Of a stretch of 64,000 nt of DNA, positions 19,404-63,763 are shown piece by piece. Below the pieces are notes generated by a model that was not told the origin of the DNA, ran no database searches, and saw nothing but the letters and a program-made list of their open reading frames with translations. The stretch's first letter is position 1. Each line of letters opens with the position of its first letter. A program made the position numbers and the translations under genes. This stretch comes from Acidobacteriota bacterium (GTDB taxonomy: Bacteria > Acidobacteriota > UBA6911 > RPQK01 > CBDDCF01). The stretch spans positions 36,101 through 100,100 of the forward strand of contig CBDDCF010000030.1 in assembly GCA_965225995.1 (NCBI GenBank). The letters are read 5' to 3'.

Positions 19404-19429
19404 CCCAATATCCTTTACAATGCGGCCTA

Positions 19430-20593: not shown

Positions 20594-20882
20594 TAGTGCA
20601 CCTGTACAATGCGGCCTAGTGCACCTGGAACCTGTCCGAGTAATGGGGTGAGGGTGCGAACATGGGTCTTGCCTTCAATCCTTTGAAACAAGAGTCTTTT
20701 CACCTACACCCAGATTCAACCAGGGTACCATTTTCCTCCGTCAACCAGCTCAGTCAACGGAAAGACAGTCGCAAGACTCGGAAATTGGGGAGGCAGGTTC
20801 TGATCCTATCCGGATACCAAAACGGCAGCTCGATTTCTTGTAGACTTGCCAGGTTACCGGCAACGGCGCCGCTGCCTAGCCG

Positions 20883-21587: not shown

Positions 21588-21818
21588 GCCACTCTTAAGG
21601 ATGAACAAAACGTCATTAAAGTCGGGTGATGCACGGCACAAAACTGATTTCTCGGCCAATCGCCAGCAAAAGTATCCTTGAATGTGCTTTGCCACTTGGC
21701 ACCAATTATTCCTTTCGAATCTATCACGAATGGCTTCGAAGGGTAATGGAGTGCGGTAGCGCAAAACTCGGAAATTGGGGATGTAGAGTGCTGATCCTGT
21801 CGTCCAAACCCAGTCAGA

Positions 21819-21866
21819 CCGGATGATCCCGGCCCTGTAGCCGAAAACTTGTGAATGATCCGGGCC
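21819..21866 (+). repeat. MITE-like ~48-bp element, copy A
   Basis: GGATGATCCCGGCCCTGTAGCCGAAAACTTGTGAATGATCCGGGCC. Related copies at 24142, 29816 and 54418 (the last in opposite orientation). Confidence 0.4.
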
Positions 21867-21892
21867 AAATCCCCCATGCTATACTCGCCCCG

Positions 21893-25177: not shown

Positions 25178-25237
25178 GCTAAGAGCCTGTCCGAGTATTG
25201 GTGGCGGATTGCGTACCAGGGTCTCGCCAAGTTTCTT

Positions 25238-25550
25238 TCTTGAATGATCCGGCGCAGCCGGTGGACGGGCTAAGATGACACTTGATTTGTGGGACGAGTA
25301 TGGCACAGGCTTTCTTGGAGTTCTCTCCCTGGATGGCATTGAAGTGGTTTCGGATGTGGGAGGGGCCGTTCCCAGGCCGCGAAAGGGCCGTCAGGCCCGA
25401 CTATGAAGATCTTATTTTATTAAGATCGCCGTCTCAGAAGGCGCCTCCCACGGTTTTGAAACACCGCTTTCCTCCGCGACACCATCCCCCGTTGTGGCTT
25501 CCCGGGAGCTCAAGTTACTTTCCTGAATGATCCGGCCACCGGCCGGGGGA
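25238..25550 (+). repeat. ~265-bp structured repeat, copy 1 (core 25270-25527), flanked by ~35-bp MITE-like direct repeats
   Basis: Core starts CTAAGATGACACTTGATTTGTGGGACG. ~85% identical to 52249-52515. Flanking gaatgatccgg...gggctaa segments lie at 25241-25274 and 25516-25550. Confidence 0.6.
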
Positions 25551-29815: not shown

Positions 29816-29863
29816 CGGATGATCCCGGCCCTGCAGCCGAAAACTCATGACTATCCGGGCTAT
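29816..29863 (+). repeat. MITE-like element, copy B
   Basis: CGGATGATCCCGGCCCTGCAGCCGAAAACTCATGACTATCCGGGCTAT. Confidence 0.4.
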
Positions 29864-38375: not shown

Positions 38376-38450
38376 CTTTTATTTTCAATAAGATCGCCGC
38401 CTGGGAAGGCACCTCCCACGGTTTTGAAACTCTGTTCTCCTGAAAGGCAG
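38376..38450 (+). repeat. Partial copy (~75 bp) of the ~265-bp structured repeat
   Basis: AGATCGCCGCCTGGGAAGGCACCTCCCACGGTTTTGAAAC matches the core of the copies at 25413-25478 and 52395-52460. Confidence 0.45.
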
Positions 38451-38522
38451 AATTGCGATTCTGGCTAGTTTTGAGACAGCTTGAAGATGCCTGCGTTACT
38501 TTGGCAGGCAGGGATGCCTGCG

Positions 38523-40297
38523 CTACTTTAGCTTAGGTAAGACCGCCAGCCGAAGCTCTTCTAACTGCTCTGGAGTCACCGGCGAGGGCGCCCCTGACAT
38601 CAGATCGAGAGCACGGGCCGTCTTGGGAAAAGCGATCACCTCGCGTAGCGAAGACTCCCCGGCCAACAGCATGGCGATCCGATCCAGGCCAAGAGCGATT
38701 CCTCCATGGGGAGGGGCACCGTAGCGTAGTGCTTCCAAGAAGAAACCGAAGCGCAGGTCGGCTTCCTCGTCCTGGATCCCCAAGAGCTGGAAGATCTTCC
38801 GCTGGACCTCGGTCTGATGGATTCGGATGGAGCCTCCGCCAATTTCGGAGCCGTTCAAGACGACGTCATAGGCCTGGGCGAGGGCAGCACTTGGATCAGT
38901 TTTCAAGAGAGCTTGATCTTCAACCCGCGGCGCCGTGAAAGGGTGATGGAGTGAGTAGTATCGACCATCAGCCTCATTCCATTCCAAGAGTGGAAAATCT
39001 TGAACCCAGAGAAGGTTCCAGGCGTCGGGAATCAGATTTCGCTGAGTGGCGACATGGGAACGCAGGGCCGCCAACGAATCATTGACTACCTTGGGCTGAC
39101 CCGCCACGATCAAGAGGATGTCCCCGGTTTTCGATCCTGCCAGCCGGCAAACTCGCTCCAATTCGGGCTCGGTCACCACCTTGGGAAGTGAGCTGCGGAT
39201 ACCTTCCGGGAGGTGTTGGATCCACGTCAGAGCCTGGGCTCCGAAAGCTTTGATGAATTCTCCGAGCTGGTCGAGCTGTTTTCGACTGAGTTCGGTTCCC
39301 CCTTCGAGGCAGATTCCCTTGATTTGTCCTCCACTCTCGAGAATGCTCCGAAAGATCCGAAACTGGCTGCTCTCGAAACCACCACTCAAATCGACTAATT
39401 CCAATCCGTATCGGGTGTCGGGCCGGTCGGTGCCGAAGCGTTCGACCGCTTCGTGGTAGCTCAGACGCGGGAAGGGAAACGGGAATCTCGACGCCGATCA
39501 GCTGGAAGAGATCGGCCAGCAGGCTTTCGACCGTGCTCAAGACAATCTCGCGGTTCACGAAAGACATCTCGATGTCGATTTGTGTGAATTCGGGCTGACG
39601 ATCGGCCCTTAGATCCTCGTCGCGGAAGCAGCGTACGATCTGGAAGTAGCGATCGAATCCCGAGATCATCAGGATCTGCTTGAAGATCTGTGGGGATTGA
39701 GGAAGCGCATAGAAGTGTCCCCTCTTGGAGCCGGCTCGGTACCAGGTAGTCGCGAGCCCCCTCCGGAGTCGATTTCGTCAAGAAGGGAGTTTCAATTTCC
39801 AAGAAACCCTGTGCGTCGAGATGCTTCCGAACGCTGAGAGCGATCTGATGACGGAGTTTCAAGTTCCTCTGGAATTGCGGGCGACGCAGATCGAGATAGC
39901 GATAGCGAAGCCTATTTTCTTCGCTGATAGCGGCTTTTTCGCTGAGCGAAATGGGAGGAGTATCGGATCGGTTTAGCAGTACGACTTTTTTGGCCAGAAC
40001 TTCGATCTCGCCGCTCGGCATGTCCGGGTTGACTGTTTCAGGAGAGCGATGAACGACCTCTCCCTGAACCAGGACGACGAACTCCGAGCGCATCTGCTTG
40101 GCGGTTTCGAAGGCTTCCACGGATTCGGAATTCACGGTCACCTGAACGATCCCTTCCCGATCCCGTAAGCTCAGGAAAATGAGGTTGCCCAGGTCTCTGC
40201 GATTGTGGACCCAGCCCATGAGAGTAACCTGGCTCGAGGCGTCAGATGCACGCAAGAGTCCACAATAGTTGGTTCTCGAAGACGTGGTTTGATTCAT
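38523..40297 (-). pseudogene. aspS: Aspartyl-tRNA synthetase, interrupted by at least two frameshifts (pieces 40297->~39730, ~39669->~39490, 39404->38523)
   Basis: N-terminal piece with anticodon-binding region and [25 protein letters not shown]. Middle piece [52 protein letters not shown] in another frame. C-terminal piece with motif 3 GGIALGLDRIAM in a third frame. The first shift is at a CCCC run (~39730). Confidence 0.85.
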
Positions 40298-43203: not shown

Positions 43204-45180
43204 TCATCTTTGTAACGACATTAGTCGTGTGAAGATGGCCCGGACTGTCGGCGTCAGTCGACCTCGATTGTAGGCATCTCCACATTGGCGGATCGCTTCG
43301 GCGGCCGTTGGGTAGGGGTGAATCACACTGGCCAGCTTCCCGAGCCCCATTCCGGCCTGGATGGCGACACTGATCTCACTAATCAGCTCTCCGGCGTGGG
43401 GTCCGACGACGGTGGCTCCCAGGATCTCGTCCTTCCCTTTTCTCACATGGATCTTGACGAACCCGGAAGTCTCGCCGTCCACGATTGAACGATCCACCTC
43501 CGAGAAATCGTGGCGGAAGGTTTGGTACTCGACTCCCTGCTCCTCCAGATCCCTTTCGTAGAGTCCCACGTGAGCTACTTCGGGATCGGTATAGGTCGAC
43601 CAGGGGATGAGCAGGGAGGAAAACTTGTCCCGACCCAGGAAGAGAGCATTCCGGATCACCAGCCGGGCCATGAAATCGGCCACATGGGTGAACTGGAACT
43701 GGGTGGCGACATCGCCGGCCGAATAGACGTTGGGATTGCTCGTCTGAAGCCGATCATTGACCTTGATCCCGCTCCGGGTATCAAAATCGATTCCGGCTTC
43801 CTGCAGCCCCAGATTATCGACAGTCGGCTTTCGGCCAGCCGCAACCAACAGCTGATCGAATTCGAGCGACCGCTGCAGCCCGGCTTGTTCGAAGATCACT
43901 CGAATGGGTCCATCCAGGCCCTGGCTCTCAATCGAGGAGTAGCTCACTGAATATTCAAAGATCACACCGTCTTCGCGCAGACTGGCAGCCACAACGTCGG
44001 CAGCCTCCGGGTCCTCCTTGGGAAGGATTCCTGCCCGACGAGAGAATACCGTCACGGCCGATCCCAGGCGAGAGAAAGCTTGTGCCAGCTCGAGCCCGAT
44101 TGGGCCAGCGCCGATCACCCCCAGGCGGGGAGGCAGTTGGGTCAGGTTGAAGACCGACGCATTGGTTAAGAACGGGGATTCCCGAAGTCCCGGAATGGAG
44201 GGAATCGCCGCCGTTCCTCCTGTGGCGATCACGGCCTTGGAAAAACGCAGGGTCTCGCCGTTGACCCGGACCGAATCAGGGCCGCTAAAAGTGCCTCTTC
44301 CCAGAAAGACGTCGACCCCGAGTCTGGCAAATCGCTCGGCCGAGTCATGCGGAGCGATGTCGGCTCGAATCCGACGGAGTCGTTCCATCACGGCCGGGAA
44401 GTCGACCGATACCTGTCCATCGATTCGGATCCCGAATTCTGCGGCCCGTTTTACAGCCGCTGCCGCTCGCGCACATCGAAGCAAGGCCTTGGAGGGCACG
44501 CATCCTACGGTGAGACAATCCCCACCCAAGAGATGAGACTCGATCAGAGCGACCCGGGCTCCCAGGCCGGCTGCCGCAGCTGCCGACACCAGTCCACCCG
44601 TTCCCCCTCCAAGCACGACCAGATTGTACCGTTCCGCAGGGTTAGGGGCCTCCCACCGAGCGGGATGAGCGTGATCGAGAAGCCGGGTATTGTGATCGTC
44701 GAGGGGAGCGATGCCAATCTCTTCCAAATCTTCGGCGGGGAACTCTCCCAGCCTGTCATCCCGCTCCGGCAGTCGCGGTTGCAGCGAATCAGCAGTCGGA
44801 CCGGTCGGGCCCAGAAAATCGGCCCAACTAACCTTGCTTCCATCCGATCTTGTAGCCACCTGACCGTGTTCTTCGTCTTTGGCAAAGCGGTAGAATAAAT
44901 AGTCATCCCGGAAGGGATGAGCCTGCTGAACATGATGGAAGATACCGGCACTGAGCAGAATGTTTCCGATCCGCAAAGCGTCTGCGATATCGCTGGCGAA
45001 ACCTTCACGAATCAGCACCTGAACGGCCTCGCTTCCCACGAAGCATTTGAGGTAGGACTTGGCCGGAAATCCGTGCTTTCGGTCCGCAATATCGAATAAC
45101 TGATGAGTGCGTTGGGCCAGAGCCTCTAGTTCGTTTTTCGAAAATTGGGCCTCTTCCCCTGGGCGATCCTGCTGTGTCAT
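43204..45180 (-). CDS. Pyridine nucleotide-disulfide oxidoreductase (class I flavoprotein disulfide reductase) with N-terminal DEP-like domain
   Basis: Redox-active GGDCLTVGCVPSK, two FAD/NAD Rossmann GxGxxG motifs, C-terminal dimerisation domain. The N-terminal ~190 aa contain FPAKSYLKCFVGSEAVQVLIREGF...LRIGNILLSAGIFHHVQQAHPFRDDYLFYRF, which matches the DEP-domain consensus. Confidence 0.65.
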   Translation of the reverse strand: MTQQDRPGEEAQFSKNELEALAQRTHQLFDIADRKHGFPAKSYLKCFVGSEAVQVLIREGFASDIADALRIGNILLSAGIFHHVQQAHPFRDDYLFYRFAKDEEHGQVATRSDGSKVSWADFLGPTGPTADSLQPRLPERDDRLGEFPAEDLEEIGIAPLDDHNTRLLDHAHPARWEAPNPAERYNLVVLGGGTGGLVSAAAAAGLGARVALIESHLLGGDCLTVGCVPSKALLRCARAAAAVKRAAEFGIRIDGQVSVDFPAVMERLRRIRADIAPHDSAERFARLGVDVFLGRGTFSGPDSVRVNGETLRFSKAVIATGGTAAIPSIPGLRESPFLTNASVFNLTQLPPRLGVIGAGPIGLELAQAFSRLGSAVTVFSRRAGILPKEDPEAADVVAASLREDGVIFEYSVSYSSIESQGLDGPIRVIFEQAGLQRSLEFDQLLVAAGRKPTVDNLGLQEAGIDFDTRSGIKVNDRLQTSNPNVYSAGDVATQFQFTHVADFMARLVIRNALFLGRDKFSSLLIPWSTYTDPEVAHVGLYERDLEEQGVEYQTFRHDFSEVDRSIVDGETSGFVKIHVRKGKDEILGATVVGPHAGELISEISVAIQAGMGLGKLASVIHPYPTAAEAIRQCGDAYNRGRLTPTVRAIFTRLMSLQR

Positions 45181-45835: not shown

Positions 45836-48675
45836 ATGAAACTGTTTTATTGGATACGGGCTTTGGTGACTGGTTTGAGAGGGCGCAAACGGCAGGAAAG
45901 TAGTCTGAGCGACGAGTTGGAGAGCTTTCTCAATCTGGCAGTCGAAGACAAGTGTCGGCAAGGAATGACACCCCAGCAAGCGCGTCGCGAAGCGTTGATC
46001 GAATTGGGTGGCCTGGAGCCGACTAAAGAGCGAGTACGGGATGGCCGAGTTGGGGAGGGATTGGAACGGGTATGGCAGGACGTCCGCTTTGCCTCCCGGC
46101 TCCTTCGTGCACATCCTGGTTTCTCAGTGGCAGTGCTGTTGACCTTGGCTCTCGGGGTGGGGGCCAACAGCGCGATTTACAGCCTCGGGCAAGCGGTTCT
46201 CTTTCGCTCCGCACCCGTGGAGCGGCCCCAAGAACTGGTGGCCGTCTGGACCACATGCCGGCGCGGCGCGCCGCAGTGCGCCAGTTCCTACCCCGACTAC
46301 CTGGACTACCGAGAACGGTCTCCTACACTTCAGGATTTGGCGGCATATTCTTGGAAGGCGATCAGTTTGGCCTCGGAAGCGGGCAGTCGAGTGGTGACGG
46401 CTCAGCTGGACAGTGGAAATTACTTTTCCATGCTCGGAGTGGGCACCCTTCTGGGTCGCTCTTTGTTGGAGTCGGATGATCGGTTGGGGGGCGCGCCGGT
46501 GGCTGTCCTGGGTCACCGCTTCTGGGTCTCTCATTTCGCCTCTGATCCTCAGATCATCGGAACAGTTATTCGCCTCAATGGTGAGCCTTTCCAGGTTGTA
46601 GGGGTCACTCCAGCAGGCTTCGACGGCTTGCACCTGGGAGCCGGTCCCGACCTGCATATTCCCCTTCAAGCGCTCCCCCTGTTGAGCGTAAATGCCGAAC
46701 GGGCTCGGCAGCGATTTTCGACTCGCGGCTCGCGCTGGATTCCTCAGTTGGTTGGCCGGCGTCTGCCGGGAACGACGTTGGAAGCGGTTCGCCAAGAGAT
46801 GGCCGCCATTTCGGAGCAGTTGGCCAAGGAGGATCCCGAGTCCCGTGGACCGCGCAAGATAACTATCGAGCCTGCAGCTCAGTTCATTCTGCCGGTGTCG
46901 CGAGCCCAGGACGTGGTGGCCTTCGTTTTTCTTCTGGGAGGAGTGGTTGGGCTGACCTTGCTCCTGGCTTGCGCCAATCTCTCGAATCTCTTGCGGGCTC
47001 GAGGACTGGCGCGGCAACACGAAATGGGGATTCGGGTGGCTATCGGAGCGAGTCGAGGGCGCCTCGTGAGACAGCAGATCACCGAGACTCTGGTTCTAGC
47101 ACTGTTGGGAGGAGGCCTCGGACTCCTGGTGGCCCGACTCATGCTGGCCGGGATCGCTTCGTTTGAATTGCCGGGCGGAATCCTGATCGAATCGGTTCAT
47201 CCGGAGCTCGACTGGGGAGTCCTCCTCGCGACTTTCGGTGTCGCCTTGTTGGCAGGATTGTTGGCGGGCTTCTTACCCGCCCTCCAGGGCACCCATTTCC
47301 GACTCGCAAAAATACTGGTTCAGGGGGCCGGCCGGGTCGACTCGACTCCTGCTGGCCATCACCTGCGCAGGGCTCTGGTCGGAATTCAGTTGGCCCTCTC
47401 GTTGGTCTTGCTGGTAGGGACAGGGCTCTTCTTGAAATCGCTGCAAAACGGATTCGCGACCGATCTCGGCTTCCGGAGCGAAGGCCTGGTCACCGCTCGG
47501 GTCGATCTCTCTTTGCTCCACTACTCCGAGGCAGAGGGGCGCCGCCTGTTGGAACAACTCATCGAGCGCTTGGAGGCCTATCCTGGAGTTGAGTCGGCGG
47601 GAGTCGGAAGCCGGCTTCCACTTGGGACAGGAGGATCAGCAACATTTCTCTCTCGGGTGGAGGGCTATACTCCCGCACCCGACGAGGAGCTCCGCATCAA
47701 TATCGAGTTTTTCCGGCCAGCTTTGCGCGCACCCTCGGACTTCAGCTAGTTGCCGGTGAAGCTCTGACAGCGAATGGCGGAGTGGACCATATCTTGATCA
47801 ATCGAGTGATGGCCGAGCGGTGGTGGTCGGGGAGAAATCCGGTGGGCGGACAAGTGCAGATGGGAGAGCGGACATTCCAGGTCACGGGAGTGCTGGAAGA
47901 TGTCCACTGGAGGGCTCAACTAGAGGAGCCATCGCTGCCTTTTGTTTTCTTTCCACTGGAGACCTCACCCTCCCGAGCGGAGGATAGCCCGATGGCGGTC
48001 TTCGCCAGAACCAGTGGGGATCCAAGCGCTCTCATGACCTTTCTCCGCGAGCAGGTGCATCAGCTCGACAGAAATCTCAGTCCCACGGCGATGACTGCCA
48101 TGGACGACCGCCTGGCCCACCTTTTGATGCCGCAGAGAATGGCAGCTTTCCTGTTTACTTGCTTTGGATCCCTGGGGCTTCTGCTGGCGGCCGTCGGAGT
48201 CTACGGCATCACCAGCTTCAGCGTCGGTCGACGCTCTCGTGAAATCGGCCTTCTCATCGCGGTGGGAGCCCGGCGCTGGCAGATCCTGTGGTTGATGGCG
48301 CGGCAATTAGCCCTACCCGTCATCCTGGGACTGGGTCTGGGAATCCTCCTCACCGGGCTACTTTCGGGGGCGGCCGAGAGTTTCCTGCTGGGTCATTCTG
48401 CAATTGATGGCGGAGCGATCCTGCTCAGCTTGGGTGCCCTCCTGATTGTCGTCTTCGGTGCCTGCCTGATCCCGGCCTCCCGTGCCTCCCGACTCGATCC
48501 CTGCAGGCGCTGCGGACCGAATGATGCTTGTCGGAAAGCAGCTAGATTTCATTGCGCCTCAGACCGACGAGGCGCCCGGAGAAGCTTGGCGGAGCCCTTC
48601 GGAGTGTGCGCGGCCAGACCGCCGCCTTTCCCTCGAAAGCGGTACTTGGACTGCCCATCCGGCTTGCCGATTTGA
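45836..48675 (+). CDS. ADOP-family ABC transporter permease (duplicated FtsX/MacB-like), with a -1 frameshift at a T5 run near 47705 (ORFs 45836..47749 and 47782..48675)
   Basis: N-terminal MacB-like periplasmic domain and two FtsX 4-TM blocks. Sequence continuity (...EFF | RTLGLQLVAGEALT...) is recovered by shifting frame at gagtttttccgg. Confidence 0.7.
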
Positions 48676-49156
48676 GGGCTGAAGGCTCTGTCATGGGAGG
48701 CTGTTGCCGAACTCGGGGTGAGCTTGTGGTGGTTTTCCGGCGCAACGGGTCTTGGGAATCGAGGGATGTGAACTACCGACGGTTTCAGGCCGGATACCAA
48801 AGCGGCAGCTCAATTTCATAGAGAATCGTCTAGTTTTCGTCAGCGATTCCGCTGCAGCACCAAATCGGCTCGCCGATTTGGAGTGCGCCTAGGAGCCTGT
48901 CCGAGTATTGGGGTGCGGTTGCGAACAGGGGTCTTGTGAGTCGAGCCGCTTTGGTATCCGGCTGAGCGTCGTGATCTTGAGTAGTCCAATAGTCCGGCAA
49001 TAGATGCCATGGCTACAGCGCCAAGGTACCGGCGGCGCGAGAATGTACAAGTCCAGCTGCTGTCGGCTGCCCAACCGGCTTCATCTGTCGCTGTTAACTA
49101 TAGTGTCTATCGATATAGCTTAGTAATCCATAGTCTTGCGTTCTGGAGAGCTTTCT

Positions 49157-52248: not shown

Positions 52249-52515
52249 CTAGGATGAAACTTGATTTGTGGGACGGGTATGCCACAGGCTTTCTTGAAGT
52301 TCTCTCCCAGGATGGCATTGAAGTGGTTTCGGAGGTGTGGGAGGGGTCCTTCCCAGGCCGCGAGAGGGCCGTCAGGCCCGAATCTAAAGATTCTATTTTC
52401 AATAGAATCGCCGCCTCAGAAGGCGCCTCCCACGGTTCTGAAACACGGCTTTCCTCTGCCACATCATCCCCCCTTTGTGGCTGACAGGGAGCTCAGTTTC
52501 CAACAATTTCCACCC
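52249..52515 (+). repeat. ~265-bp structured repeat, copy 2, 13 bp downstream of the ADOP permease stop
   Basis: CTAGGATGAAACTTGATTTGTGGGACG... ~85% identical to 25270-25527. An internal hairpin carries compensatory substitutions between the copies. Confidence 0.6.
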
Positions 52516-53937: not shown

Positions 53938-54417
53938 GAGGTTGTCCATGATTTCCCGCAACTGGAGAATTCGATGTGGTCCTTGGCGGGCATTGGATGA
54001 GCAATGCGGATACCTTCGGCCTGGCCGTTGGACCCTGGGCCGCGCTGCGCTCCGCGGCTCTGATAGGGTGCCCGGAAGCTCAGTTGGAGTCGATCAGCGG
54101 AGCCTGTAATTGGAACGCTGATTCTCAGAGCCCCGAGCCCGCGAGGGGTATCGGATGCCCGCTCCTTGCTCCAGAGAGACGATTTGCTAATGCTTTCCTC
54201 TCCCAAGTCCAACTCGCCCTGGGCTGATTCGGAAGGGCAAAGGCACGGGGGAGCAGCCGACAAGGCTGCAATCCAGCTGGTGAGAGTCCAGCCGTGTGAA
54301 TTACTCGTTCACACACGTATCGATGCCGCTGCTCGGGGCAGGTAACCAACCGAGATTTGCGTGGTGTAAACGGCCTGGCCGTCCTTCAAAAGAAGCGGCG
54401 GGAGCAACCTGGAGGTC

Positions 54418-54468
54418 TAGCCCGGATAATGCACGAGTTTTCGGCTGCAGGGCCGGGATCATCCGCTC
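54418..54468 (-). repeat. MITE-like element, copy C (reverse orientation)
   Basis: CTAGCCCGGATAATGCACGAGTTTTCGGCTGCAGGGCCGGGATCATCCG. The first 20 nt resemble the IS1380-like terminal repeat at 58598 (CTAGCCCGGATTATGCAAGA). Confidence 0.4.
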
Positions 54469-55132
54469 TGACTGCGTTACCCACCCTCGGGCTCCTCGAC
54501 AGAGGGCACGACTATGACTGCAGCCCGGAAATGTGCCCCCCTGGTGAAGTTGCAGAGTTGGGGATGTGTGGTGAGCCGAACGTCTCCCGTGTCACGTAAG
54601 GCCGGAGTGTCTTGGGAAGCAACGAGTAGCCGGAGGAAAGGTCATGGTCGCCAACCGGACTTGGGAAATCCGACCGTTCCGGATGAAACGGGGGGCTTGC
54701 GGAAACGTGAGCAATGGTGGAACTAGGAACCCGCCGCACAACCGAAAGGGTGCGGGTCGGAAACTCTCCACCTAAGGCTACGCGCGTCGTACTGCTATCC
54801 CAACCAGGGGTTGCCCGTCTGAGGGGAGCCCTTGCCAATATGAACTTGATGCCATGTGCTCAGTTCATAAAGTGGCGTAAACCACTGATGATTTCATAGT
54901 TCTCTCCCTTCGGACATCAGGGATCCTACCTGGCAACCCTCCAGAATACGGCAACGGAACGTGGGAGCTCTTCCAGTTTCTTTCCTGAATGAGCCGAGGG
55001 AACCTCGGAAGCACTGCTAGTACTTTGAAAGCCGGAACCCGAATGTTATAAAAACGATATAGATCGACCGCCGGTGCTTTGCTTCGAGCGCTGAACAACA
55101 GAGCTCGTCAGCGGCCCTTGGGAGTTATTACA

Positions 55133-56902
55133 ATGATGCAACGTGGACTGTCAATACTCGTACTGCTCTGGGGGATCTCTTGTGGTTCGGGTTTGCCGAC
55201 TGATTCACCGAGGGACGATTCCCTGCAAACTTTGCTCGACGAAGCCTGGGAATTCCGGCTCCGCGAGGACCCTGTTTTTGCGACATCTATAGGCCGCCAT
55301 GAATACGACGACCGGCTGGCTTCTGTCGCCTTGTCAGACTTGGAGCGGCGGGTGCTGTTCTGGCGAGATATCTTGTTGCGTCTGGAAGACTTCGATGGCG
55401 ACGGCTCACTCTCGGACGCTGCTCGTCTCAACTACGATTTGTTCCGGCGCCAGGTCGAAGATCGGATCCAGTCGTTTGAGTTCAAAGAGTACCTGATGCC
55501 CTTGACCGCCGAGGCGGGATTCCACACCCGCTTCGCTTTTCTCCCCCAGAACATGCCGTTTCAAACGACCCACGATTACCAGAGCTACATATCCCGTCTG
55601 GAAGCCTTCGGAGAGTTGACCGATCAGCACATCGTTCACCTGACGACCGCCGTTGAGGAAGGCTATGCGTTGCCGCGAGAGGTGTTGGATGGGTACGAAG
55701 GGACCATCCAATCCCATGTGGTTTCGAACATCGACGAGAGCGTCTTCATGGCCCCCTTTCAGAGTTTTCCCGATGGAGTTTCCGAAGCGGATCGAACGGC
55801 TCTGGTTGAGCAAGGGCGGCACGCTGTCTCGACCGCGGTTATTCCAGCTTACCAGCGTTTTTTGGAGTTCTTCCTGAATCGCTATCGGCCGGAGTCCCGC
55901 CAGAGTCTGGGGGCATCCGAGCTTCCCAACGGCGATGCCTATTACCGTTACTTGATCCGCCTCCACACGACGTTGGATTTGAATGCCGAAGAAGTGCACC
56001 AACTCGGGCTCCAAGAAGTTTCTCGACTCCAGAGTGAGATGGGGCAGGTGATTGTCAAGGTTGGGTTCCGAGGGGATCTACAAGCTTTCATCCGCTCTCT
56101 CCGCACCGATCCCCGTTTTTACGCCCAGACAGGCGAGCAGCTTCTCAAGGAGGCAGCCTGGATAGCCAAGACGATGGACGGCAAACTCCCTGCTCTGTTC
56201 AAGACCCTCCCGAGGCGGCCTTACACGGTCGAGCCCGTGCCCGATCATATCGCCCCCAAATACACGGCTGGCCGCTACGTTGGAGCTCCCCAGGGCAGCA
56301 CGCGGCCAGGAATCTACTGGGTCAACACCTACTCTCTGGAAAGTCGCCCTCTCTATTCATTGACGGCTCTCACCCTGCACGAAGCTGTTCCTGGTCATCA
56401 CCTGCAGAACGCGCTCCGTCAGGAGCTCGAAAGCCTTCCTGATTTTCGGCGTTACTCCGGGGTCAATGCCTACGGCGAGGGATGGGGGCTCTATTCCGAA
56501 TGGCTGGGACTGGAAGCCGGCTTCTATACTGATCCTTACGACAATTTCGGTCGGCTCACCTACGAGATGTGGAGGGCTTGCCGGCTGGTGGTCGATACCG
56601 GTCTGCATTCCAAGGGTTGGAGTCGCCAACAAGCGATTGACTTCATGGCTGCGAATACGGCGCTATCTCTGCACGAGATTGGGACGGAGACGGATCGATA
56701 TATCTCCTGGCCGGGTCAGGCGCTGGCCTACAAGATGGGCGAGATCAAGATCAAAGAACTCCGCCGGAGAGCGGAGGCCGCCCTGCAGTCAGACTTTGAC
56801 GTGCGCGAGTTCCATGACGAGATCCTCCGCCACGGACCGCTTCCTCTCACGCAATTGGAAAACCAGATAGAACGTTGGATCGAGGAGACCGCCGCCCGCT
56901 GA
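55133..56902 (+). CDS. DUF885-family lipoprotein (putative metallopeptidase-like)
   Basis: Lipobox LLWGISCGSG; conserved LHEAVPGHHLQ motif, characteristic of DUF885. Confidence 0.7.
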   Translation: MMQRGLSILVLLWGISCGSGLPTDSPRDDSLQTLLDEAWEFRLREDPVFATSIGRHEYDDRLASVALSDLERRVLFWRDILLRLEDFDGDGSLSDAARLNYDLFRRQVEDRIQSFEFKEYLMPLTAEAGFHTRFAFLPQNMPFQTTHDYQSYISRLEAFGELTDQHIVHLTTAVEEGYALPREVLDGYEGTIQSHVVSNIDESVFMAPFQSFPDGVSEADRTALVEQGRHAVSTAVIPAYQRFLEFFLNRYRPESRQSLGASELPNGDAYYRYLIRLHTTLDLNAEEVHQLGLQEVSRLQSEMGQVIVKVGFRGDLQAFIRSLRTDPRFYAQTGEQLLKEAAWIAKTMDGKLPALFKTLPRRPYTVEPVPDHIAPKYTAGRYVGAPQGSTRPGIYWVNTYSLESRPLYSLTALTLHEAVPGHHLQNALRQELESLPDFRRYSGVNAYGEGWGLYSEWLGLEAGFYTDPYDNFGRLTYEMWRACRLVVDTGLHSKGWSRQQAIDFMAANTALSLHEIGTETDRYISWPGQALAYKMGEIKIKELRRRAEAALQSDFDVREFHDEILRHGPLPLTQLENQIERWIEETAAR

Positions 56903-57260
56903 GGCTCCCTGAGACAGCTGCGACGCTTGATCTCGGTTGTCAACGACAGCTCCAGACTCGCTTCGCACCCATCTGCTTTGCCTCTTGCGATGCAAGTCTT
57001 GCTTTGTAGGAGTGAGATGTGCTGACGAACTCCGCTTTCCTGGAAGGAGAGCTGGAGGAAGAATGCTCGGGGTATGAGGGCGGCTGGCGCCCAGGCCTGC
57101 TGGCTGGGGCGGAGCCGTGTAAGGATGACCTCCCAGGATGTCATCCGGAATCAATCTCATCCACCCGACTTCGCTGTCAGCCAGCGGTGCTCTCGCAAAA
57201 TCAACAAACCGAGGGCGATCCAGAGAGTAATCAGCAGAAGATTCCCGATCGCAAACCCCG

Positions 57261-58496
57261 TCACTTGCAAAGGCAGGACCTGCGTCCCCAGGTACACGAA
57301 CAGGCGGAGAGGACATCCCCAGCCCGTACAAAGAATGTGTCCAGCGCCTGCTTGGCCTTATACTTTTCCTCTCTCGTGGTGGGTAGCCAAAGCAGATGGC
57401 GGGCCGTGTTCATGATCGAGTAGTCACTCGAATTCTCAGCCGACTTGGCCCATCGGATGATGGAAAACCCCACTCCAGCGGCAATCACCCCATAGGCTCC
57501 AAGTGCGATCACCGGAAGGGCCAGTAGTACGCCTGCCAGGCTGGCATACTTGACCAGGCGGGAAACCAGGAAGGCCTGAATGGTCACTGCCATGATGTTG
57601 ACCCAGAAGAAGAAGTTCCCATAGAAGGCGCCTATGAACGCCCCTACGTCGAGAGCTGGATTGGAGGCTTGCAGAGCAGCAGCCTGCCGGGTCACCATCT
57701 CGGCTAGGATGTATTCGCCGGTGGTATTGACGAGGTTGAGGAGGATTAACAAGAGAGCAATCAGCGAAATGTAGCGGCTCTTGAAGACCAGCGCGAAACC
57801 GTTTCCTGGAGCCAGCACCTTGTGAGCCGGAGCCGAAGCTCGCGGGTTTCGTTCTTCGCGCCGATCGATGAGTAAGTACAGACCCACCGTGACGAGCAAA
57901 ATAGCGGCTGATAGGTGCATCATCAAAGCTGGCCGGATCCCCGATTCGAAGAGTTTGCTAGCCAGGAAAGCACCCACCGGAGCCCCTGCAGTCAGACCGA
58001 CTCCGATGATTGGGAAGAGCCGATTCCCAGCTCCTTCGCTGTAGATGTCGTTGGCGTAAGACCAGAACTGGGCGATGATGGCCAGGCTGAAGAATCCCAC
58101 CCAGATGAAGAACATCGTTCCCACATAGGGGACGCCGGCAGAGACCGCCAGGGCAAACATTTCAATATTGATGAGGAAGAAAAGAGTCACTCCAAGGATC
58201 AGCTTCATGCGATCGACCCGCGAGGCGAACCAGCTATAAGCCGGAATGAATGCCATCAAGATGAGGGCCTGGCTGGCTGCCGCATAAGACTTTCCGATCG
58301 CACCACCCTCGAGCAGAATGAGCGGTTCCCGCAGGGTCTTGAGAATGTAATAACAGACCAGAACAAGAAAGATGTTGGAAGACATCAGGAGGACCGTTCT
58401 CGACTCTCCTGCCTGAACCTCGCTGAAGACCGCCAACAGACGGGAGAGAATTCCTCGGCGCTCCGGATCATCCCGTGAAATCTGGGAAGTGTCCAT
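57261..58496 (-). CDS. TLC/NTT-like nucleotide (ATP/ADP) transporter family membrane protein; C-terminus possibly truncated
   Basis: 10-11 predicted TM helices. N-terminal region (LLMSSNIFLVLVCYYILKTLREPLIL) resembles the first TM/K-x-x-L(R/K)D motif of Tlc/Npt proteins. Confidence 0.45.
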   Translation of the reverse strand: MDTSQISRDDPERRGILSRLLAVFSEVQAGESRTVLLMSSNIFLVLVCYYILKTLREPLILLEGGAIGKSYAAASQALILMAFIPAYSWFASRVDRMKLILGVTLFFLINIEMFALAVSAGVPYVGTMFFIWVGFFSLAIIAQFWSYANDIYSEGAGNRLFPIIGVGLTAGAPVGAFLASKLFESGIRPALMMHLSAAILLVTVGLYLLIDRREERNPRASAPAHKVLAPGNGFALVFKSRYISLIALLLILLNLVNTTGEYILAEMVTRQAAALQASNPALDVGAFIGAFYGNFFFWVNIMAVTIQAFLVSRLVKYASLAGVLLALPVIALGAYGVIAAGVGFSIIRWAKSAENSSDYSIMNTARHLLWLPTTREEKYKAKQALDTFFVRAGDVLSACSCTWGRRSCLCK

Positions 58497-58597
58497 TAAC
58501 CTCTCATTTCTCGGAGTGGAAAGTATCCCGAGTATGCGGGGAAGGCGCCAAGTACACAAGACGGAGTGCTTGCCGTGCCGCCCTACGTTTGGCTACT

Positions 58598-60252
58598 CTA
58601 GCCCGGATTATGCAAGAACCGTAGGCCGGAGTTGAAAAGAGAGTCGAAAGTGGCCTAAATCGGGAGATCGAAGGTGCGACAGGCGGATTTTCGAGGGATC
58701 TCTGTGGACGAGCCGTGTGGAGTAGGTGGGGGAGTGAATTTCAGACGGAGTTGGGCCTGAATGAGTGTCCTAAACGATCATTCGGGAGCTAGGAGAGGCT
58801 AGCTGGAGTTAAGGCGATTCAAGACGAGGAGGAAAAGGGCCTGCTCCGGAAAGCCGGAGGAAAGATGGGCCCAGATGCGTCGAGTGGTTTGTCGAACCCG
58901 CGCCCCAATTTTGAGGACCCGGCGACGCAAAGTTTCGATTTCGAGTTTCTGCCAGGGGGTTCCATACAGATAATCGCGGAGTCGGACGAACATCTGGTAA
59001 GCCAGCCCATGCAGGAGAAGTCGAAACTGGTTGGCCAGGAATCGATGACAGCTCAGCCGATCCATACTCAGATGGTTCTTAAAAGCCTTGATGAAGTTCT
59101 CCGACTGTCCTCGATCGGTGTAGTGATCATAAAGGGACTGGGAAGAGAGATCGTCTCGGTTGGTGACCACAAAGCGACGATTGATCCCCCGATGGTCGAC
59201 TTCCACTTTGACGATGACGCGACGGAATCGATCCCAGCTGCTGGCTCGATAAAGAAACTCGTCAAACTGACGCTGTTTTTCCTCGAACTCGTCGAACCTG
59301 AGTCGAGTCGACTCGAGCATCGGCTCGACCATCCGTTGCCGGCGGGGGTTCCGGCTTAACCCAATGACATATTGGAGTTTGTTCTCTTCAGATTCACAGA
59401 ACTCGTAGAGCCGAGGCGTGGCAAAGCCGCTGTCGGCCCGGATCTCAATTTGAAGTTCCTTGCCAACTTCTCGTCGAATGGCTTTCACGATTCGTTTCAG
59501 AATAGGAACGATGTGAGAGGCAGCCCCCTTGTTTCCAGGCCTCAATACGACAGTGACCAGGTCCCCCGTAACGGCATCGAAGATCAGCCAAGGATGCAGA
59601 ATGTGGTTTCGGTAATAGCCGTGGTAAAAAGAGAATTCCTGTTGGCCGTGAGTGTGGTCGTCAGTACTGTCCAGGTCCAAGATGACCGGGTCGGGGCGTC
59701 TCTTCTTCAGCGAGCGGACATAACGCTGTAGGAACCCCCGGCTCAGACGCATGAGATCCTTCTTGCTGACAGAGTTTTCCAAACGGGAAAAAGTTGCCTG
59801 GGTGGCCAAGTCAGGATCGCTCTCAGGTAACTGATCACAGACGGTCTTGAGCATGGGATCCGAGCGCAGCGTGTCCGCGTCATTGCAGTCTTCGTACCCG
59901 GCAACGATCTGAAAGACTCGTTGTCGGATCAGCTGTAACTGCTCATGACGAACGTAGCGTTGGTCCCGGCTATCCGCAATACACGAACTGAAGTCCTCGC
60001 AGAGTCGATCTTGCCGATCCAGGGAACCAAACAACAGCCATCCGGCATCGGAAGTCAGGTTCCCACCATCAAAACGAGCCGTGATTTGTGTGTGCGAGTG
60101 AAATGCCAGGGTGGTCTGACAGACTGGGTTTGACATTGCCGTAGTTCTCCGATAAGGATTTGTTTAATAAACCCTTTTATATCAGAGAGATACGGCATTT
60201 TTTCTGGTCCCCAATCCACTCGAATCCGGATCTCTTGCATAATCCGGGCTAG
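58598..60252 (-). mobile_element. IS1380/IS4-like insertion sequence (1655 bp) with perfect 20-bp terminal inverted repeats
   Basis: CTAGCCCGGATTATGCAAGA at 58598-58617 and its exact reverse complement at 60233-60252. If CTAG is the target duplication, the TIR is the 16 bp beginning with CC. Confidence 0.75.
58799..60136 (-). CDS. DDE transposase (IS1380/IS4-like, DDE_Tnp_1)
   Basis: 445 aa; DLDSTDDHTHG and DSGF acidic motifs. Confidence 0.75.
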   Translation of the reverse strand: MSNPVCQTTLAFHSHTQITARFDGGNLTSDAGWLLFGSLDRQDRLCEDFSSCIADSRDQRYVRHEQLQLIRQRVFQIVAGYEDCNDADTLRSDPMLKTVCDQLPESDPDLATQATFSRLENSVSKKDLMRLSRGFLQRYVRSLKKRRPDPVILDLDSTDDHTHGQQEFSFYHGYYRNHILHPWLIFDAVTGDLVTVVLRPGNKGAASHIVPILKRIVKAIRREVGKELQIEIRADSGFATPRLYEFCESEENKLQYVIGLSRNPRRQRMVEPMLESTRLRFDEFEEKQRQFDEFLYRASSWDRFRRVIVKVEVDHRGINRRFVVTNRDDLSSQSLYDHYTDRGQSENFIKAFKNHLSMDRLSCHRFLANQFRLLLHGLAYQMFVRLRDYLYGTPWQKLEIETLRRRVLKIGARVRQTTRRIWAHLSSGFPEQALFLLVLNRLNSS

Positions 60253-60706
60253 AACACGATACAGGCGATTCTCAACCGTTTCCCTGGAAGGATAGCTGTC
60301 GGGGGCCACATCAAAAGCGGCCACTCAGGGCCGGGTCAAAACCGGCCAGTGATCTAGTAGTTATATCCTCGCCTTGAACACATTTCAATCCTTGTGAAGG
60401 CCTCCGTGAGGAGGCTGTACGGCCTGCTGGTCGGGGTGGGTTTGCTGTGAGCCCGTGAGCAGGGCGTTCGTTGACCGGTTCGGCCGGTTCTTGGACCGCG
60501 AAGCTGGTCGATCCGGAATCTTCTTTCTTGTTGGTATGTCCAGTAGCAGAAGCGGTGCGTAACTGTGGGAAACGAGCGAGCACCGCGAGCCGTTTTCCAA
60601 GCGCTGTGGGAACGGTGGAAGAACCGATGCATGGGCCAGCTTCTCGATGTGACCGTTCTCCACGGTTTCCATAGCGCGGCAGTTTCCACGGCTTTCCGGT
60701 TCCGGA

Positions 60707-61480
60707 TCATTTCTTTTCTCCTCGCTTCTTGGTCGACTTCTCCCGTTGTTGACGTTCGTAGAGGCGATAGCTCTTGCCTCGAATGAAGGTCACCTCCGAA
60801 ACGTGTAGAAAACGATCCAGCAGCGCAGAGGTGGCCGCCGTGTCTCCTCCCAGCATCGCTCCCCAGTCCTCGAGTGGTCGGTTCGAACTGATAATGGTCG
60901 AGGTCTTCTGGTAGCGGCGATGCAGGATCTCCAGCAGATCTTCAGCCGCCGAGTCGGGCACTCTCCGAAGTCCCAGATCCTCGATGATCAGCAGCGGGAT
61001 CCGGGTCATCTCTGCAATGTAGGGTCGGCGCATCCCGGTGGCAGTGGCTTCAGCGATGTCCTCGAGCAGATCGAAAGCCGACTTGTACTGTACCCGGTGA
61101 CCCGCTTCCACAGCCTTGATTGCCACCGTGATGATCAGATGTGTTTTGCCGACTCCCGCCTGACCGATGACCAACCAGCCGCGACACTGTTCGATGAATC
61201 GGCAAGTGGCCAGATCAAAGATCTGCTGCCGATTGATCGAGGTGTTGAAAGAGAACCTGAAGTCCTCCAAGAGTTTGCGTTCCGGGAACTGGGCCTGGCG
61301 GAGACATCGCTCCAGCAAACGGTCGCGCCGGCGGGTGAGTTCGTCGTCGATGAGCAGCTCAAAGAACTCCTGATGAGAGAGACGGCCCTGGATGGCTTGT
61401 TGCAGCCGTACGTCAAAGACCTGGGCCAGGCCCGAGAGCCTGAGGTGGCGAAGTTTCCGTTCCAGTTCCAATGAGATCAT
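60707..61480 (-). CDS. istB: IS21-family helper ATPase IstB
   Basis: Walker A GQAGVGKTHL, Walker B LLIIEDLG. Confidence 0.9.
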   Translation of the reverse strand: MISLELERKLRHLRLSGLAQVFDVRLQQAIQGRLSHQEFFELLIDDELTRRRDRLLERCLRQAQFPERKLLEDFRFSFNTSINRQQIFDLATCRFIEQCRGWLVIGQAGVGKTHLIITVAIKAVEAGHRVQYKSAFDLLEDIAEATATGMRRPYIAEMTRIPLLIIEDLGLRRVPDSAAEDLLEILHRRYQKTSTIISSNRPLEDWGAMLGGDTAATSALLDRFLHVSEVTFIRGKSYRLYERQQREKSTKKRGEKK

Positions 61481-62973
61481 TCCGGGTCTCCTGAGCGGGG
61501 AGTGAGTTGGTACTCAGACAGCGGCCGAATCAACTCGTGGTCGGAGGTGAATAGAGAGCGTTGCGGCACGTCTAGTCGCTTGCATAAAGCCACCAGGGTC
61601 CGATAGCGGAAGGCATCGTGAGAGAGAGCCTTGGCACAGGCTTCATTGACGACCGTGGCCGGGTAGCGTCGGGTCAAAGAGATCATGCCTCTCAGGAGCC
61701 GGTAGGCCAACACGTCGCGCACCTCCAGGGCTCGCACTGCCCAGCGGTGAGCATCAGAGCCAATCCTGCGGGCTTGCCCGAGCAGCTGACTCTCAGTTCG
61801 ATAATGAGCGTAGCGTTTGCGTTCCGGAAGATGTGTGGGTTCGGTCTGGAACTGGCCGGGTTTCCGCTTGGGATGCAGGACGACTTGCTGCTCTCGGAAA
61901 AAGACTCGGACGATCCGGTCATCCCAGTGCACAGCCACTTCACAGCCAAGCAGATGATTGGGTACCGAGTAGAAGGCTCGATCGACTTCGATGTGGCCAT
62001 CCACGGAGACCGTGCGACGGCCGGTACGGAAGAAACTGAAGCGGGAGTCGGGTAGAGGTCGAAGACCCTTCTGTTCCTCCAGGAATCGGGGCCAGACCTG
62101 CTGTTTGGTGGTGCCGTGGATGCGCTGTCGGGCGACCCGCTCGTTCCAGTTCCGTAGATGCTCATTCTGCTCGGCCAGACTCTCGAACCGTCTGCCCTTC
62201 AGGGCACTGGACTTTGTATATCCGATCGTCCTTTCGACTTTTCCATTCTCATTTGGAGAGCCAGGATGGATGGGAATGATGGCAAAACTATAGTGACGGC
62301 CCAGCGCACTGAAAACGGCGTTGATCTCGGGATCGACAAAGCAGGCTCGCGTGACTCCGGCCTTCAGGTTATCCAAGCGAACCACGTCTACCGAGCCACC
62401 AAACCAGTGGAAGGCATTCTCGACACAACGGACGAAGGTCTCCAGATCCTGCCGCCAGACGACCTCCTCATACGAGTGGCGGGAATAACACAGCACTGCC
62501 TTGAACAGGTGGGGGCGACGGTACCGGCCCGATTCGGTTTGTGTCAGAGCTGCTTTGCCAAAGTCCACCTGCATGTCCCGACCGGGTGGAGTTTCCACCC
62601 GAGCGAAGACTCGTGGACTCTCGGCTTTGAGCTTTCTGCAAAACCGTTTGACGGAGTTATACGCTCCATCGAAGCCATGCTCCAAAACCAGGTCTTGCCA
62701 GATCCGCTTGGCATGCAACCCCAGCTCAAGCTTCTTCTGGATTTCCTCCCGAAAAGGCTCACACGAGCTGCGCCGACCCGGGGGCCGCTTTGGCCGCTTT
62801 TGCTCACCCGAGCCGGGGGCCACTTTGGCCGGTTTTGAATCTCGGGCCGGATCATGTCGGGCTACAGTCTCTCGACGAACTCCTGTTTCTCGCTCGATCC
62901 GCCGATACGACCAGCCCAGCTTCAATAGCGCCACAACCGTTTGTTTCTTCTCCATTTTCAGTACATTGACCAT
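61477..62973 (-). CDS. istA: IS21-family transposase IstA
   Basis: HTH + DDE integrase core, 498 aa, 4-bp overlap with istB. Confidence 0.9.
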   Translation of the reverse strand: MVNVLKMEKKQTVVALLKLGWSYRRIERETGVRRETVARHDPARDSKPAKVAPGSGEQKRPKRPPGRRSSCEPFREEIQKKLELGLHAKRIWQDLVLEHGFDGAYNSVKRFCRKLKAESPRVFARVETPPGRDMQVDFGKAALTQTESGRYRRPHLFKAVLCYSRHSYEEVVWRQDLETFVRCVENAFHWFGGSVDVVRLDNLKAGVTRACFVDPEINAVFSALGRHYSFAIIPIHPGSPNENGKVERTIGYTKSSALKGRRFESLAEQNEHLRNWNERVARQRIHGTTKQQVWPRFLEEQKGLRPLPDSRFSFFRTGRRTVSVDGHIEVDRAFYSVPNHLLGCEVAVHWDDRIVRVFFREQQVVLHPKRKPGQFQTEPTHLPERKRYAHYRTESQLLGQARRIGSDAHRWAVRALEVRDVLAYRLLRGMISLTRRYPATVVNEACAKALSHDAFRYRTLVALCKRLDVPQRSLFTSDHELIRPLSEYQLTPRSGDPE

Positions 62974-63068
62974 CGGCGCATCCTACGAGGGATGCAGCTC
63001 TCAATGGCTCCTGAAAATGGCCGGTTTTGAAGTGGCCCTCACTGGCCGCTTTTGGGTGGCCCCTGACA

Positions 63069-63595
63069 TCCACGGATAGAACCAGCGCATTGTCGGGCGG
63101 ATCCATATACAGCCCCACCACATCGATTACCTTTTCGGCGAAGTGAGGATCGTTGCTGATTTTAAAGTTACGGACTCGATGCGGCTTCAGGTCGGCTGCC
63201 TTCCAGATCTGGGCGACTTGATGTTTGCTCACTCCGGAGTGTTCGGCCATCAGTCGCACACTCCAGTAGGTCGATTCCCGTGGGATGCGTTCAACGGTGG
63301 CTTTGAGAATAGCTCGCACATTGGCATGCGATAGCTTCCGCGGAGGGCCCGATCGAGGTCGATCCTCCAGTCCTGACACTCCCTGCTCAAGATAGCGCCT
63401 GCGCCACATTTGCACACTCAGTAGCCGCTTGGAGAGCCTTTCCGAAACTTCAGTCGCCGTCAGCCCCTGGCCGCAAGCCAGAATTATTTGAGCCCGTTCG
63501 GCCAAGACTCGATCGGTCTTGGAAGCCCGCAACCAGGACTCCAGTATTCTTCGATCTTGTTCGGGTAGCTTTAGTCGAATGTGGGGTCTTGCCAT
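63069..63595 (-). pseudogene. IS630 transposase, N-terminal ~175 codons only
   Basis: MARPHIRLKLPEQDRRILESWL...PPDNALVLSVD, then the sequence diverges at the IS21 junction. Confidence 0.7.
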
Positions 63596-63653
63596 GCCCA
63601 ACAATAGCAAACTACCCTGACATTTAACATCGGGAACTTTCCGGACAGTGCAC
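63069..63653 (-). mobile_element. Truncated second copy of the IS630-family element (right half only)
   Basis: 63073-63653 is ~98% identical to 20010-20593, including the terminal repeat CGGACAGTGCAC at 63641-63653. The IS21 insertion ends at 63068. Confidence 0.75.
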
Positions 63654-63763
63654 TGGGCACCGACAACGAGGCCAAGTGGCAATCAGTTTCCAGTTTCGGA
63701 GACTTGACTCGGCTGTAAGCAAGTTGCAAGGGAGAGGTGCCTAGGACCTGTTATCATTCGGCT

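Follow-up and report, generated by a model that had tools for sequence, protein, structure and literature searches.

An IS1380-family element in an ISEcp1-like position beside a TLC/NTT-like transporter gene of an uncultured Acidobacteriota: probably an ordinary insertion

Does an insertion sequence (IS) that is positioned like ISEcp1 also drive or mobilise the gene next to it? The question is raised by a locus in the window, the 64-kb stretch of DNA analysed here, in which an IS1380-like transposase gene is followed by a terminal repeat and, about 100 bp further on, by the gene of a TLC-like transporter read in the same direction. Based on this arrangement, the original prediction proposed that the transporter may be expressed from the IS or have been mobilised with it. 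Our analysis supports this in part: family and geometry hold, and both functional inferences are unsupported. We consider it probable that the locus reflects an ordinary insertion, in which a recently active, multi-copy IS1380-family IS entered a CTAG site ~100 nt upstream of a resident chromosomal transporter gene.

The open reading frame at 58799..60136 (minus strand) is an intact, full-length gene for a DDE-type transposase of 445 aa. Its proposed family membership was borne out by HMM search, with 466 bits for PF13701 and 374 bits for NCBIfam NF033539, "IS1380 family transposase" (cutoff of 180 bits; residues 20-427 on profile positions 2-417 of 419). The terminal repeat noted at 58598, downstream of the transposase gene, is one half of a perfect 21-nt inverted repeat, TCTAGCCCGGATTATGCAAGA, at 58597-58617 and 60233-60253; for the 16-nt core, 0.43 matches are expected by chance across the window. 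The IS proper (58602..60248, minus strand, 1647 bp) is bounded by 16-nt perfect inverted repeats (IRs; CCCGGATTATGCAAGA), the left one (IRL; 60233..60248, minus strand) lying 5' of the transposase gene and the right one (IRR; 58602..58617, plus strand) forming the transporter-facing end. Beside them stand the tetranucleotides CTAG at 60249..60252 and CTAG at 58598..58601, each a probable 4-bp target duplication as judged from the flanks of relatives. The element measures 1647-1657 bp, and ~200 nt of 3' non-coding sequence separate the transposase stop codon from the IRR end. These boundaries are supported by copies L083-L088, in which homology breaks off after CCGGG+CTAG, and by the JGI contig L135, which starts and stops exactly at CCCGG...GCGGG. 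Members of the IS1380 family are, per ISfinder, ~1.55-2.0 kb long and have short terminal inverted repeats beginning with CC, and the single ORF, the length and the IRs found here conform to this description. IS1247, as an example, has 1672 bp and an IR of 16/13 (PMC3281130). The observation itself, a transposase gene with its IR and an adjoining co-oriented transporter gene, is thus confirmed.

Clusters of transposase proteins with 98-100% identity hold 60 and 381 member sequences, and a 99%-identical IS copy (L083) occurs at an unrelated site, so that the element is seen in several copies at different sites. Additional copies with long context were limited to L083 and L084, and in both the downstream neighbours are oppositely oriented to the IS. 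CTAG is present on both sides of the window IS and of seven close copies, which have no other direct repeats outside these flanks, and CTAG or YTAR flanks both sides in nearly all IS relatives. The non-palindromic flanks among the relatives are direct in three cases and inverted in two, and the palindromic CTAG could equally be an extension of the IR. Since CTAG is palindromic as well as a preferred target, its presence on both sides cannot prove a two-ended insertion at exactly 58598/60249. The clade of the IS (41-99% identity) shares the ends CCCGGATTATTCA and the CTAG flanks and is known from metagenome contigs only. The best annotated relatives by tblastn, plasmid-borne IS1380 elements such as the ISAzs3 family of Azospirillum, cover 95-98% of the query but are at most 39% identical to the window transposase, and exact-protein look-ups of the latter and of P0121, P0126 and P0124 gave no matches. 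The IS is an undescribed, highly multi-copy IS1380-family element of uncultured Acidobacteriota with a strong preference for CTAG targets.

The anatomy of ISEcp1 was measured directly on the pC15-1a copy, located upstream of blaCTX-M-15, and the comparison agrees with the description of the window IS as positioned like ISEcp1. Both are single-ORF DDE elements of comparable length (1656 bp versus 1647 bp here) with a similar 3' non-coding stretch (207 nt versus ~200 nt, counted from the transposase stop codon to the end of IRR), both are followed past IRR by a co-oriented gene after a short gap (48 nt to the bla ATG versus 100 nt), and the transposases of both match IS1380 HMMs. However, the two transposases are only 22.8% identical, and nothing at the equivalent position of the IS 3' end in the window corresponds to the ISEcp1 promoter, TTGAAA-18-TACAAT, which stops 74 nt short of the IRR end there. 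ISEcp1 has ends reading CCTAGATTC... and a 5-bp duplication, whereas the ends of the window element read CCCGGATTATG... and are flanked by CTAG. Also unlike ISEcp1, it comes without evidence of cargo capture. An ISEcp1-like position is not evidence for an ISEcp1-like function, and beyond annotation the significance of the locus is slight.

Read on the minus strand, the transporter gene begins with an ATG at 58496, 100 nt past 58597, and is preceded by GAGAGG. For the gene proposed at 58496->57261, the start, the strand and the ~100-bp gap stand, but the end does not: the stop at 57261 is premature, owing to the loss of 1 nt from a CCC run at 57305, as seen by comparison with a 99.5%-identical contig. 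The deletion is probably an assembly error, and the repaired gene (58496->57157) encodes 446 aa. The match of the product to the Pfam TLC model (PF03219) is weak and partial (37-39 bits; 39.2 bits versus a gathering score of 21 for residues ~19-116 on profile positions 10-110 of 491), and the NCBIfam search gave no match and no equivalog. The subfamily profile A1 hits the solved NTT PDB 9j3n (E=1.7e-10, residues 128-432), a distant relationship, and relatives carry the JGI label "AAA family ATP:ADP antiporter". With the TLC/NTT family (PF03219; ADP,ATP carrier protein 1, PDB 9j3n/9j3j) it thus shares the profile match to solved NTTs, but it is very distant, its Pfam match extending over ~100 residues and its length being ~446 aa versus ~500-600 aa. 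By these profile comparisons the gene product is a distant TLC/NTT-like MFS transporter, with nucleotides as a putative substrate.

The best non-self matches of the transporter are 65-69% identical and come from Acidobacteriota where named, as do the best named non-self matches of the host RecG (at most 59% identical). The GC content of the 57-60 kb region (0.54-0.57) is similar to that of the remaining window, and members of the subfamily are common among Acidobacteriota with a free-living habit rather than in obligate intracellular bacteria. Neither DUF885 nor ThiF was a neighbour of the transporter at any of 80 loci with homologues in other genomes; thus, its resident status rests on phylogenetic affinity and composition and not on synteny. 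Clustering of the neighbours around the homologues was also attempted and discarded, as it was swamped by spurious high-GC ORFs.

In an ordinary insertion, the 1647-bp IS with its 16-nt IRs would have landed at a CTAG ~100 nt 5' of the transporter start codon, in a normal two-ended event with duplication of this CTAG. The site before insertion would have read ...ATCGTGT-CTAG-AGTAGCCAAACG, and the co-orientation of IS and transporter would be a 50:50 accident. The host is an uncultured, deep-branching Acidobacteriota, with the transporter gene as a presumed resident. The IS-transporter junction is shared by three contigs of the species (the window, L001 and L002), recurring in L001 and L002 at 99.5% identity together with 11.4 kb of downstream DNA, and ENA samples ERZ25071132 and ERZ25067264 contain this species as well. 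Later on, further ISs would have rearranged the DNA on the IRL side, namely IS21 and IS630 here and IS110 in a sister contig. If the insertion affects the transporter at all, this would be through unterminated transposase read-through or a weak promoter overlapping the IR, and not through an ISEcp1-type promoter.

Whether the IS supplies the transcription of the transporter, as in ISEcp1 or ISPme1, through a weak promoter in IRR or through read-through of the transposase gene, is doubtful, although this alternative survives better than the others. In this view, the insertion severed the gene from anything more than 100 nt upstream, and yet two sister contigs carry it unbroken. The co-oriented IS lies 100 nt from the ATG, and outward promoters are documented for the IS1380-family elements ISEcp1 and ISPme1 (PMC9330008). 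A strict consensus promoter scan of 58597-58798 found no site. The relaxed scan of the IS 3' end gave a single match, TTCAAC-18-CATAAT (58607..58636, minus strand; 8/12), the -10 of which lies inside IRR. This candidate counts in favour of IS-supplied transcription, but it falls within an IR that is conserved for other reasons and is at background frequency, since matches of this 8/12 type occur at 0.9 per kb per strand. Moreover, the spacer between IS and transporter (58497..58597, minus strand), which also holds the GAGAGG as ribosome-binding site, carries an equally weak candidate native promoter, TTGGCG-18-GATACT (58551-58522). The divergence from ISEcp1 in both promoter and transposase also argues against IS-supplied transcription, as does the orientation of the two other IS copies, which face away from the neighbouring genes. 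The claim that the IS drives the transporter by an outward promoter is not supported by these scans and, by the measure that the original prediction had set itself, a promoter-like sequence in the IS end, is close to refuted; the negative is weak evidence, as the consensus used may not be that of this phylum. From the end of the transposase gene to the start of the transporter gene, no terminator and no unusual structure are predicted (z=-0.10), so read-through into the transporter is possible, but equally so for any co-oriented insertion.

The IRL side raises the question of assembly. There, a 43-bp remnant (60254..60296) separates the IS1380 element from an IS21-family element (60297..63068, minus strand; istA 61477..62973, istB 60707..61480). 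The latter adjoins a truncated IS630 copy, for which no continuation was found across IS21 and IS1380. On the IRL side, the sequences of the window and L001 part precisely where the IS ends, which means rearrangement or mis-assembly in one of the two at least. It is unlikely, in our view, that low-coverage long-read contigs were joined via the multi-copy IS and that the 43 bp, IS21 and IS630 are not truly adjacent to it. Besides the position of the divergence, this would account for the frameshifts in AspRS and in the transporter and for the IS21-family element having no matching target duplication around it, and the sister contigs are labelled 3x-10x. Yet genuine IS-mediated rearrangements would look alike, and the junction of IRR and transporter is present in three independent contigs.

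Mobilisation of the transporter with the IS is very unlikely. It would require the IS and its 3'-adjacent DNA to form a transposition unit (TMo), with IRL at 60248 and an IR-like sequence at 54421 as ends, which, at 5.8 kb in total, brought the transporter, a DUF885 gene and 660 nt of non-coding sequence into the site. There is precedent in the ISPme1 and IS1247a TMos of Paracoccus, in which IS1380-family members with a strong outward promoter are documented to move the DNA at their 3' side by way of IR-like sequences (PMC9330008, PMC3281130). The geometry is alike, with the transposase reading towards the adjacent cargo and an IR-like sequence downstream; but the Paracoccus TMos are defined by trap-plasmid capture, and according to the authors such units are unrecognisable in silico without a conserved context (PMC3281130). 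A candidate for the alternative terminal repeat that the original prediction suggested looking for past 57261 lies 2.7 kb past the gene end and in IRR orientation (54417..54436, plus strand; CTAG + CCCGGATAATGCACGA). Its 16-mer at 54421-54436 matches the IR at 14/16 positions, or 20/22 over the outer 22 nt with TCTAG+IR, and CTAG is found beside each candidate end (at 54417, 58598 and 60249); the outermost bases of the putative unit, T...A, fit a TCTAGA target. However, this sequence belongs to a dispersed repeat of 50-100 nt, at least four copies of which occur in the 64 kb, none of them adjoining an IS, and a suitably oriented copy within 4 kb is to be expected about 1 time in 8. As CTAG is part of the repeat and flanks every copy, it has no discriminating value. 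Differences between the window and L001 lie outside IRL only and not outside 54417, the cargo is seen in one context only, with an identical downstream context in three contigs, it has neither foreign composition nor foreign phylogenetic affinity, and no outward promoter was recognised in silico in the IS 3' end. Finally, the suggestion that homologues of the transporter elsewhere might also sit beside IS1380 ends is contradicted, as none of 80 genomic loci with homologues had an IS1380 transposase within 8 kb and none of 82 loci with IS relatives had a TLC-like transporter. Even more remote is the idea that the block 54421-60248 is a natural transposable module, using a dispersed IR-like repeat as surrogate right end to mobilise, and perhaps express, the transporter and DUF885 genes. 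If it were true, an environmental phylum would have, in its scattered IR-like repeats, a ready stock of surrogate ends with which genes could be captured, and real capture would have shown that IS1380-type mobilisation reaches beyond clinical resistance genes, to transporters of core metabolism in soil and sediment bacteria. The repeat at 54417 was also considered as the end of a decayed IS1380 copy, which was rejected, as there is no transposase remnant and no inverted partner behind it.

Neither the Rfam nor the tRNA scan of the window gave a hit. A 23-nt similarity between 60276-60298 and 57032-57054 was evaluated as a duplicated target and discarded, since it is only 87% identical and part of an intergenic repeat of ~130 nt, which is also found elsewhere (L001, 6295-6427).

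The arrangement of the IS1380-like transposase gene and the co-oriented transporter gene beside it is best explained if a new, multi-copy element of the IS1380 family inserted in the ordinary way upstream of a gene already resident there, a reading that we consider likely. The transposase ORF (58799..60136, minus strand, 445 aa) matches Pfam PF13701 (DDE_Tnp_1_4) over the whole protein length with 466 bits and the NCBIfam model NF033539 ("IS1380 family transposase") with 374 bits (cutoff 180), which bears out the family assignment of the original prediction. The best plasmid-borne annotated relatives are at most 39% identical. A 21-nt perfect inverted repeat, TCTAGCCCGGATTATGCAAGA, brackets the ORF at 58597-58617 and 60233-60253; for its 16-nt core, CCCGGATTATGCAAGA, 0.43 chance matches are expected in the window with three mismatches allowed. 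Homology ends directly after ...CCGGG-CTAG in L083, a copy of 99% identity from an unrelated site, in four relatives of 85-86% identity (L084-L087) and in one of 63% (L088). The same ends, CCCGGATTATTCA..., bordered by CTAG or a different YTAR tetranucleotide, occur in about 70 relatives that are more distant (41-63% identity of the transposase), and the collapsed metagenome contig L135 has its first and last bases exactly at CCCGG...GCGGG. Since no direct repeat beyond CTAG was found in any close copy, and target duplications in the IS1380 family are 4-5 bp, the most economical reading would place the IS proper at 58602..60248 (1,647 bp), with CTAG at 58598-58601 and 60249-60252 as a putative 4-bp target duplication. 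In IS1247, the duplication is 5 bp (PMC3281130). As CTAG is palindromic, a target duplication is inseparable from CTAG as the tip of the inverted repeat; the non-palindromic flanks among relatives are direct in three cases and inverted in two. The eight closest copies have complementary bases immediately outside CTAG on the two sides (NCTAGN': T/A, C/G, G/C...; window and L083-L090), a pattern that fades in distant relatives, where only 12/32 have complementary outer bases. The pattern points to NCTAGN' palindromes as targets, the symmetric preference possibly being specific to the subclade.

The transporter gene was correctly placed just beyond the IS end that the transposase reads towards (IRR), with its ATG at 58496 on the minus strand, 100 nt beyond 58597, and a GAGAGG ribosome-binding site upstream. 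Its originally predicted end at 57261 is premature, one C being missing from a CCC run at 57305. With this C restored, the gene (58496->57157) encodes 446 aa, 99% identical to P0001, a protein found intact in two same-species ENA contigs. The deletion is probably an assembly error and not the mark of a pseudogene, considering that the essential AspRS gene is also frameshifted (split at 39404-39461) and that GCCAGC/GCCGGC differences account for many of the mismatches between the window and L001, a same-species contig carrying both IS and transporter. Overall, the assembly seems prone to indels and errors (low-coverage long reads). A MacB/FtsX-type permease, apparently split into adjacent ORFs (45836-47749 and 47782-48675), may reflect a further artefact of this sort, either a frameshift or a stop. 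Judged by sequence, the transporter is only remotely related to TLC/NTT proteins. The Pfam TLC model covers ~100 residues with 39 bits, the NCBIfam search returned no equivalog, and a subfamily profile reaches solved ADP,ATP carrier proteins with E=1.7e-10. The more than 5,000 relatives are mostly without a name or JGI-labelled "AAA family ATP:ADP antiporter".

A contribution of the IS to transporter transcription, which is compatible with ordinary insertion, is possible yet unsupported, and we regard it as doubtful. The original prediction rested on an analogy with ISEcp1, whose dimensions were measured on a real copy, that of plasmid pC15-1a (L165), giving figures consistent with PMC9330008. 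The analogy holds for the geometry, as seen in the length (1,656 bp in ISEcp1 versus 1,647-1,657 bp here), the distance from transposase stop to IRR end (207 versus ~200 nt) and that from IRR to the downstream ATG (48 versus 100 nt), but not for the promoter or for gene capture and mobilisation. Despite the almost equal layout, the transposases are only 22.8% identical, and the outward promoter of ISEcp1 (TTGAAA-18-TACAAT, which stops 74 nt short of the IRR end) has no counterpart at the equivalent position. A consensus scan of 58597-58798 found no sigma-70-like sites, although this is weak evidence because the promoter rules of this phylum may differ from the consensus. When the scan was relaxed (at least 3/6 plus at least 4/6, total at least 8/12), the only match in the IS end was TTCAAC-18-CATAAT (58636-58607), with its -10 within the IRR; the native spacer holds an equally weak one, TTGGCG-18-GATACT (58551-58522), and the window-wide background is 0.9 matches per kb per strand. 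The outward promoter that had been proposed finds no positive support, its one relaxed match occurring at the background rate. Given that no terminator and no unusual RNA structure (z=-0.10) are predicted from the transposase stop to the transporter ATG, transcriptional read-through into the transporter is possible.

Mobilisation of the transporter with the IS, also proposed originally, is very unlikely. An IS1380 transposase was found at 0/80 loci of transporter homologues (53-66% identity, 8-kb flanks), and a TLC-like gene at 0/82 loci with relatives of the IS. In the other copies with long context, L083 and L084, the downstream genes lie on the opposite strand. The IS-transporter junction and the next 11.4 kb are 99.5% identical across the window, L001 and L002 (a further same-species contig), and thus the gene is known in one context only. 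The window is chromosomal, with housekeeping genes for topoisomerase subunits, RecG, AspRS, an HflX-like GTPase and others. Outside the species, RecG, taken as host marker, has one unnamed match at 89%, its best named ones (at most 59%) being Acidobacteriota, and the best matches of the transporter (63-69% identical) are almost all from Acidobacteriota/Vicinamibacteria. GC around the gene is unremarkable, and by affinity and GC it appears to bear no mark of foreign origin.

It is just as improbable that the IS and its downstream DNA form a captured unit, that is, an ISEcp1/ISPme1-type transposable module (TMo). A terminal-repeat-like sequence, for which the original prediction proposed a search, does exist downstream: CTAG+CCCGGATAATGCACGA at 54417-54436, beyond the transporter and DUF885 genes, is oriented as the IRR, matches the inverted repeat at 14/16 positions (20/22 if TCTAG on the outside and one more base on the inside are included) and, together with the far end of the IS (IRL), would bound a 5.8-kb CTAG-flanked unit. 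But this sequence is the head of a 50-100-nt dispersed intergenic repeat, whose copies (54417-54515(+), 21807-21874(-), 24090-24188(-) and 29816-29862(-)) share a start of ~20 nt that resembles the inverted repeat of the IS1380 clade together with its (C/T)TAG flank. At that density, a right-oriented copy within 4 kb is to be expected in roughly one case in eight; CTAG, being present beside every end, has no discriminating power; and the window and L001 differ outside the IRL only, not outside 54417. The further copies (21807, 24090, 29816) do not adjoin an IS, no inverted partner or transposase remnant was found at any copy, and the repeat may derive from a related IS, as solo-end or MITE-like debris. 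TMo-type units are not recognisable in silico without conserved context (PMC3281130). The IR-like repeat lies in a 1.14-kb stretch (53938-55078) between the ThiF-rhodanese and DUF885 genes, without a convincing ORF or Rfam match.

On the IRL side, the divergence between the window and L001, contigs 99.5% identical, begins exactly at the outer edge (60253 and 8243, respectively). It points to a rearrangement mediated by ISs, to recombination between copies of the IS, or to a chimeric contig joined at a repeat, and is without effect on the IRR-transporter junction. In the window, an IS21-family element (istA/istB, 60297..63068; extended ends TGTC...GACA; no matching target duplication) lies just 43 bp from the IS and abuts a truncated IS630 copy (63069-63658); an intact IS630 copy lies at 19427-20596. 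In L001, an IS110-family element lies 53 bp away, with a glycosyltransferase gene behind it. Another IS21-family element of the window, unrelated to the first, occupies 8257-10505. The DUF885 and transporter genes converge on a ~130-nt repeat (56924-57057), which contains a terminator-like hairpin and has a 79%-identical copy in L001 (6295-6427) and a 23-nt piece (60276-60298) in the 43-bp remnant beside the IRL. More intergenic repeat families (45-300 nt, 70-90% identical) are scattered over the window, at 25182-25493, 52249-52475 and 38378-38461 and also at 1468-1512, 20627-20671 and 48892-48936. Elsewhere in the window, the ORF at 43204-45180(-) has an N-terminal DEP domain, typically a eukaryotic signalling domain, fused to a pyridine nucleotide-disulphide oxidoreductase.
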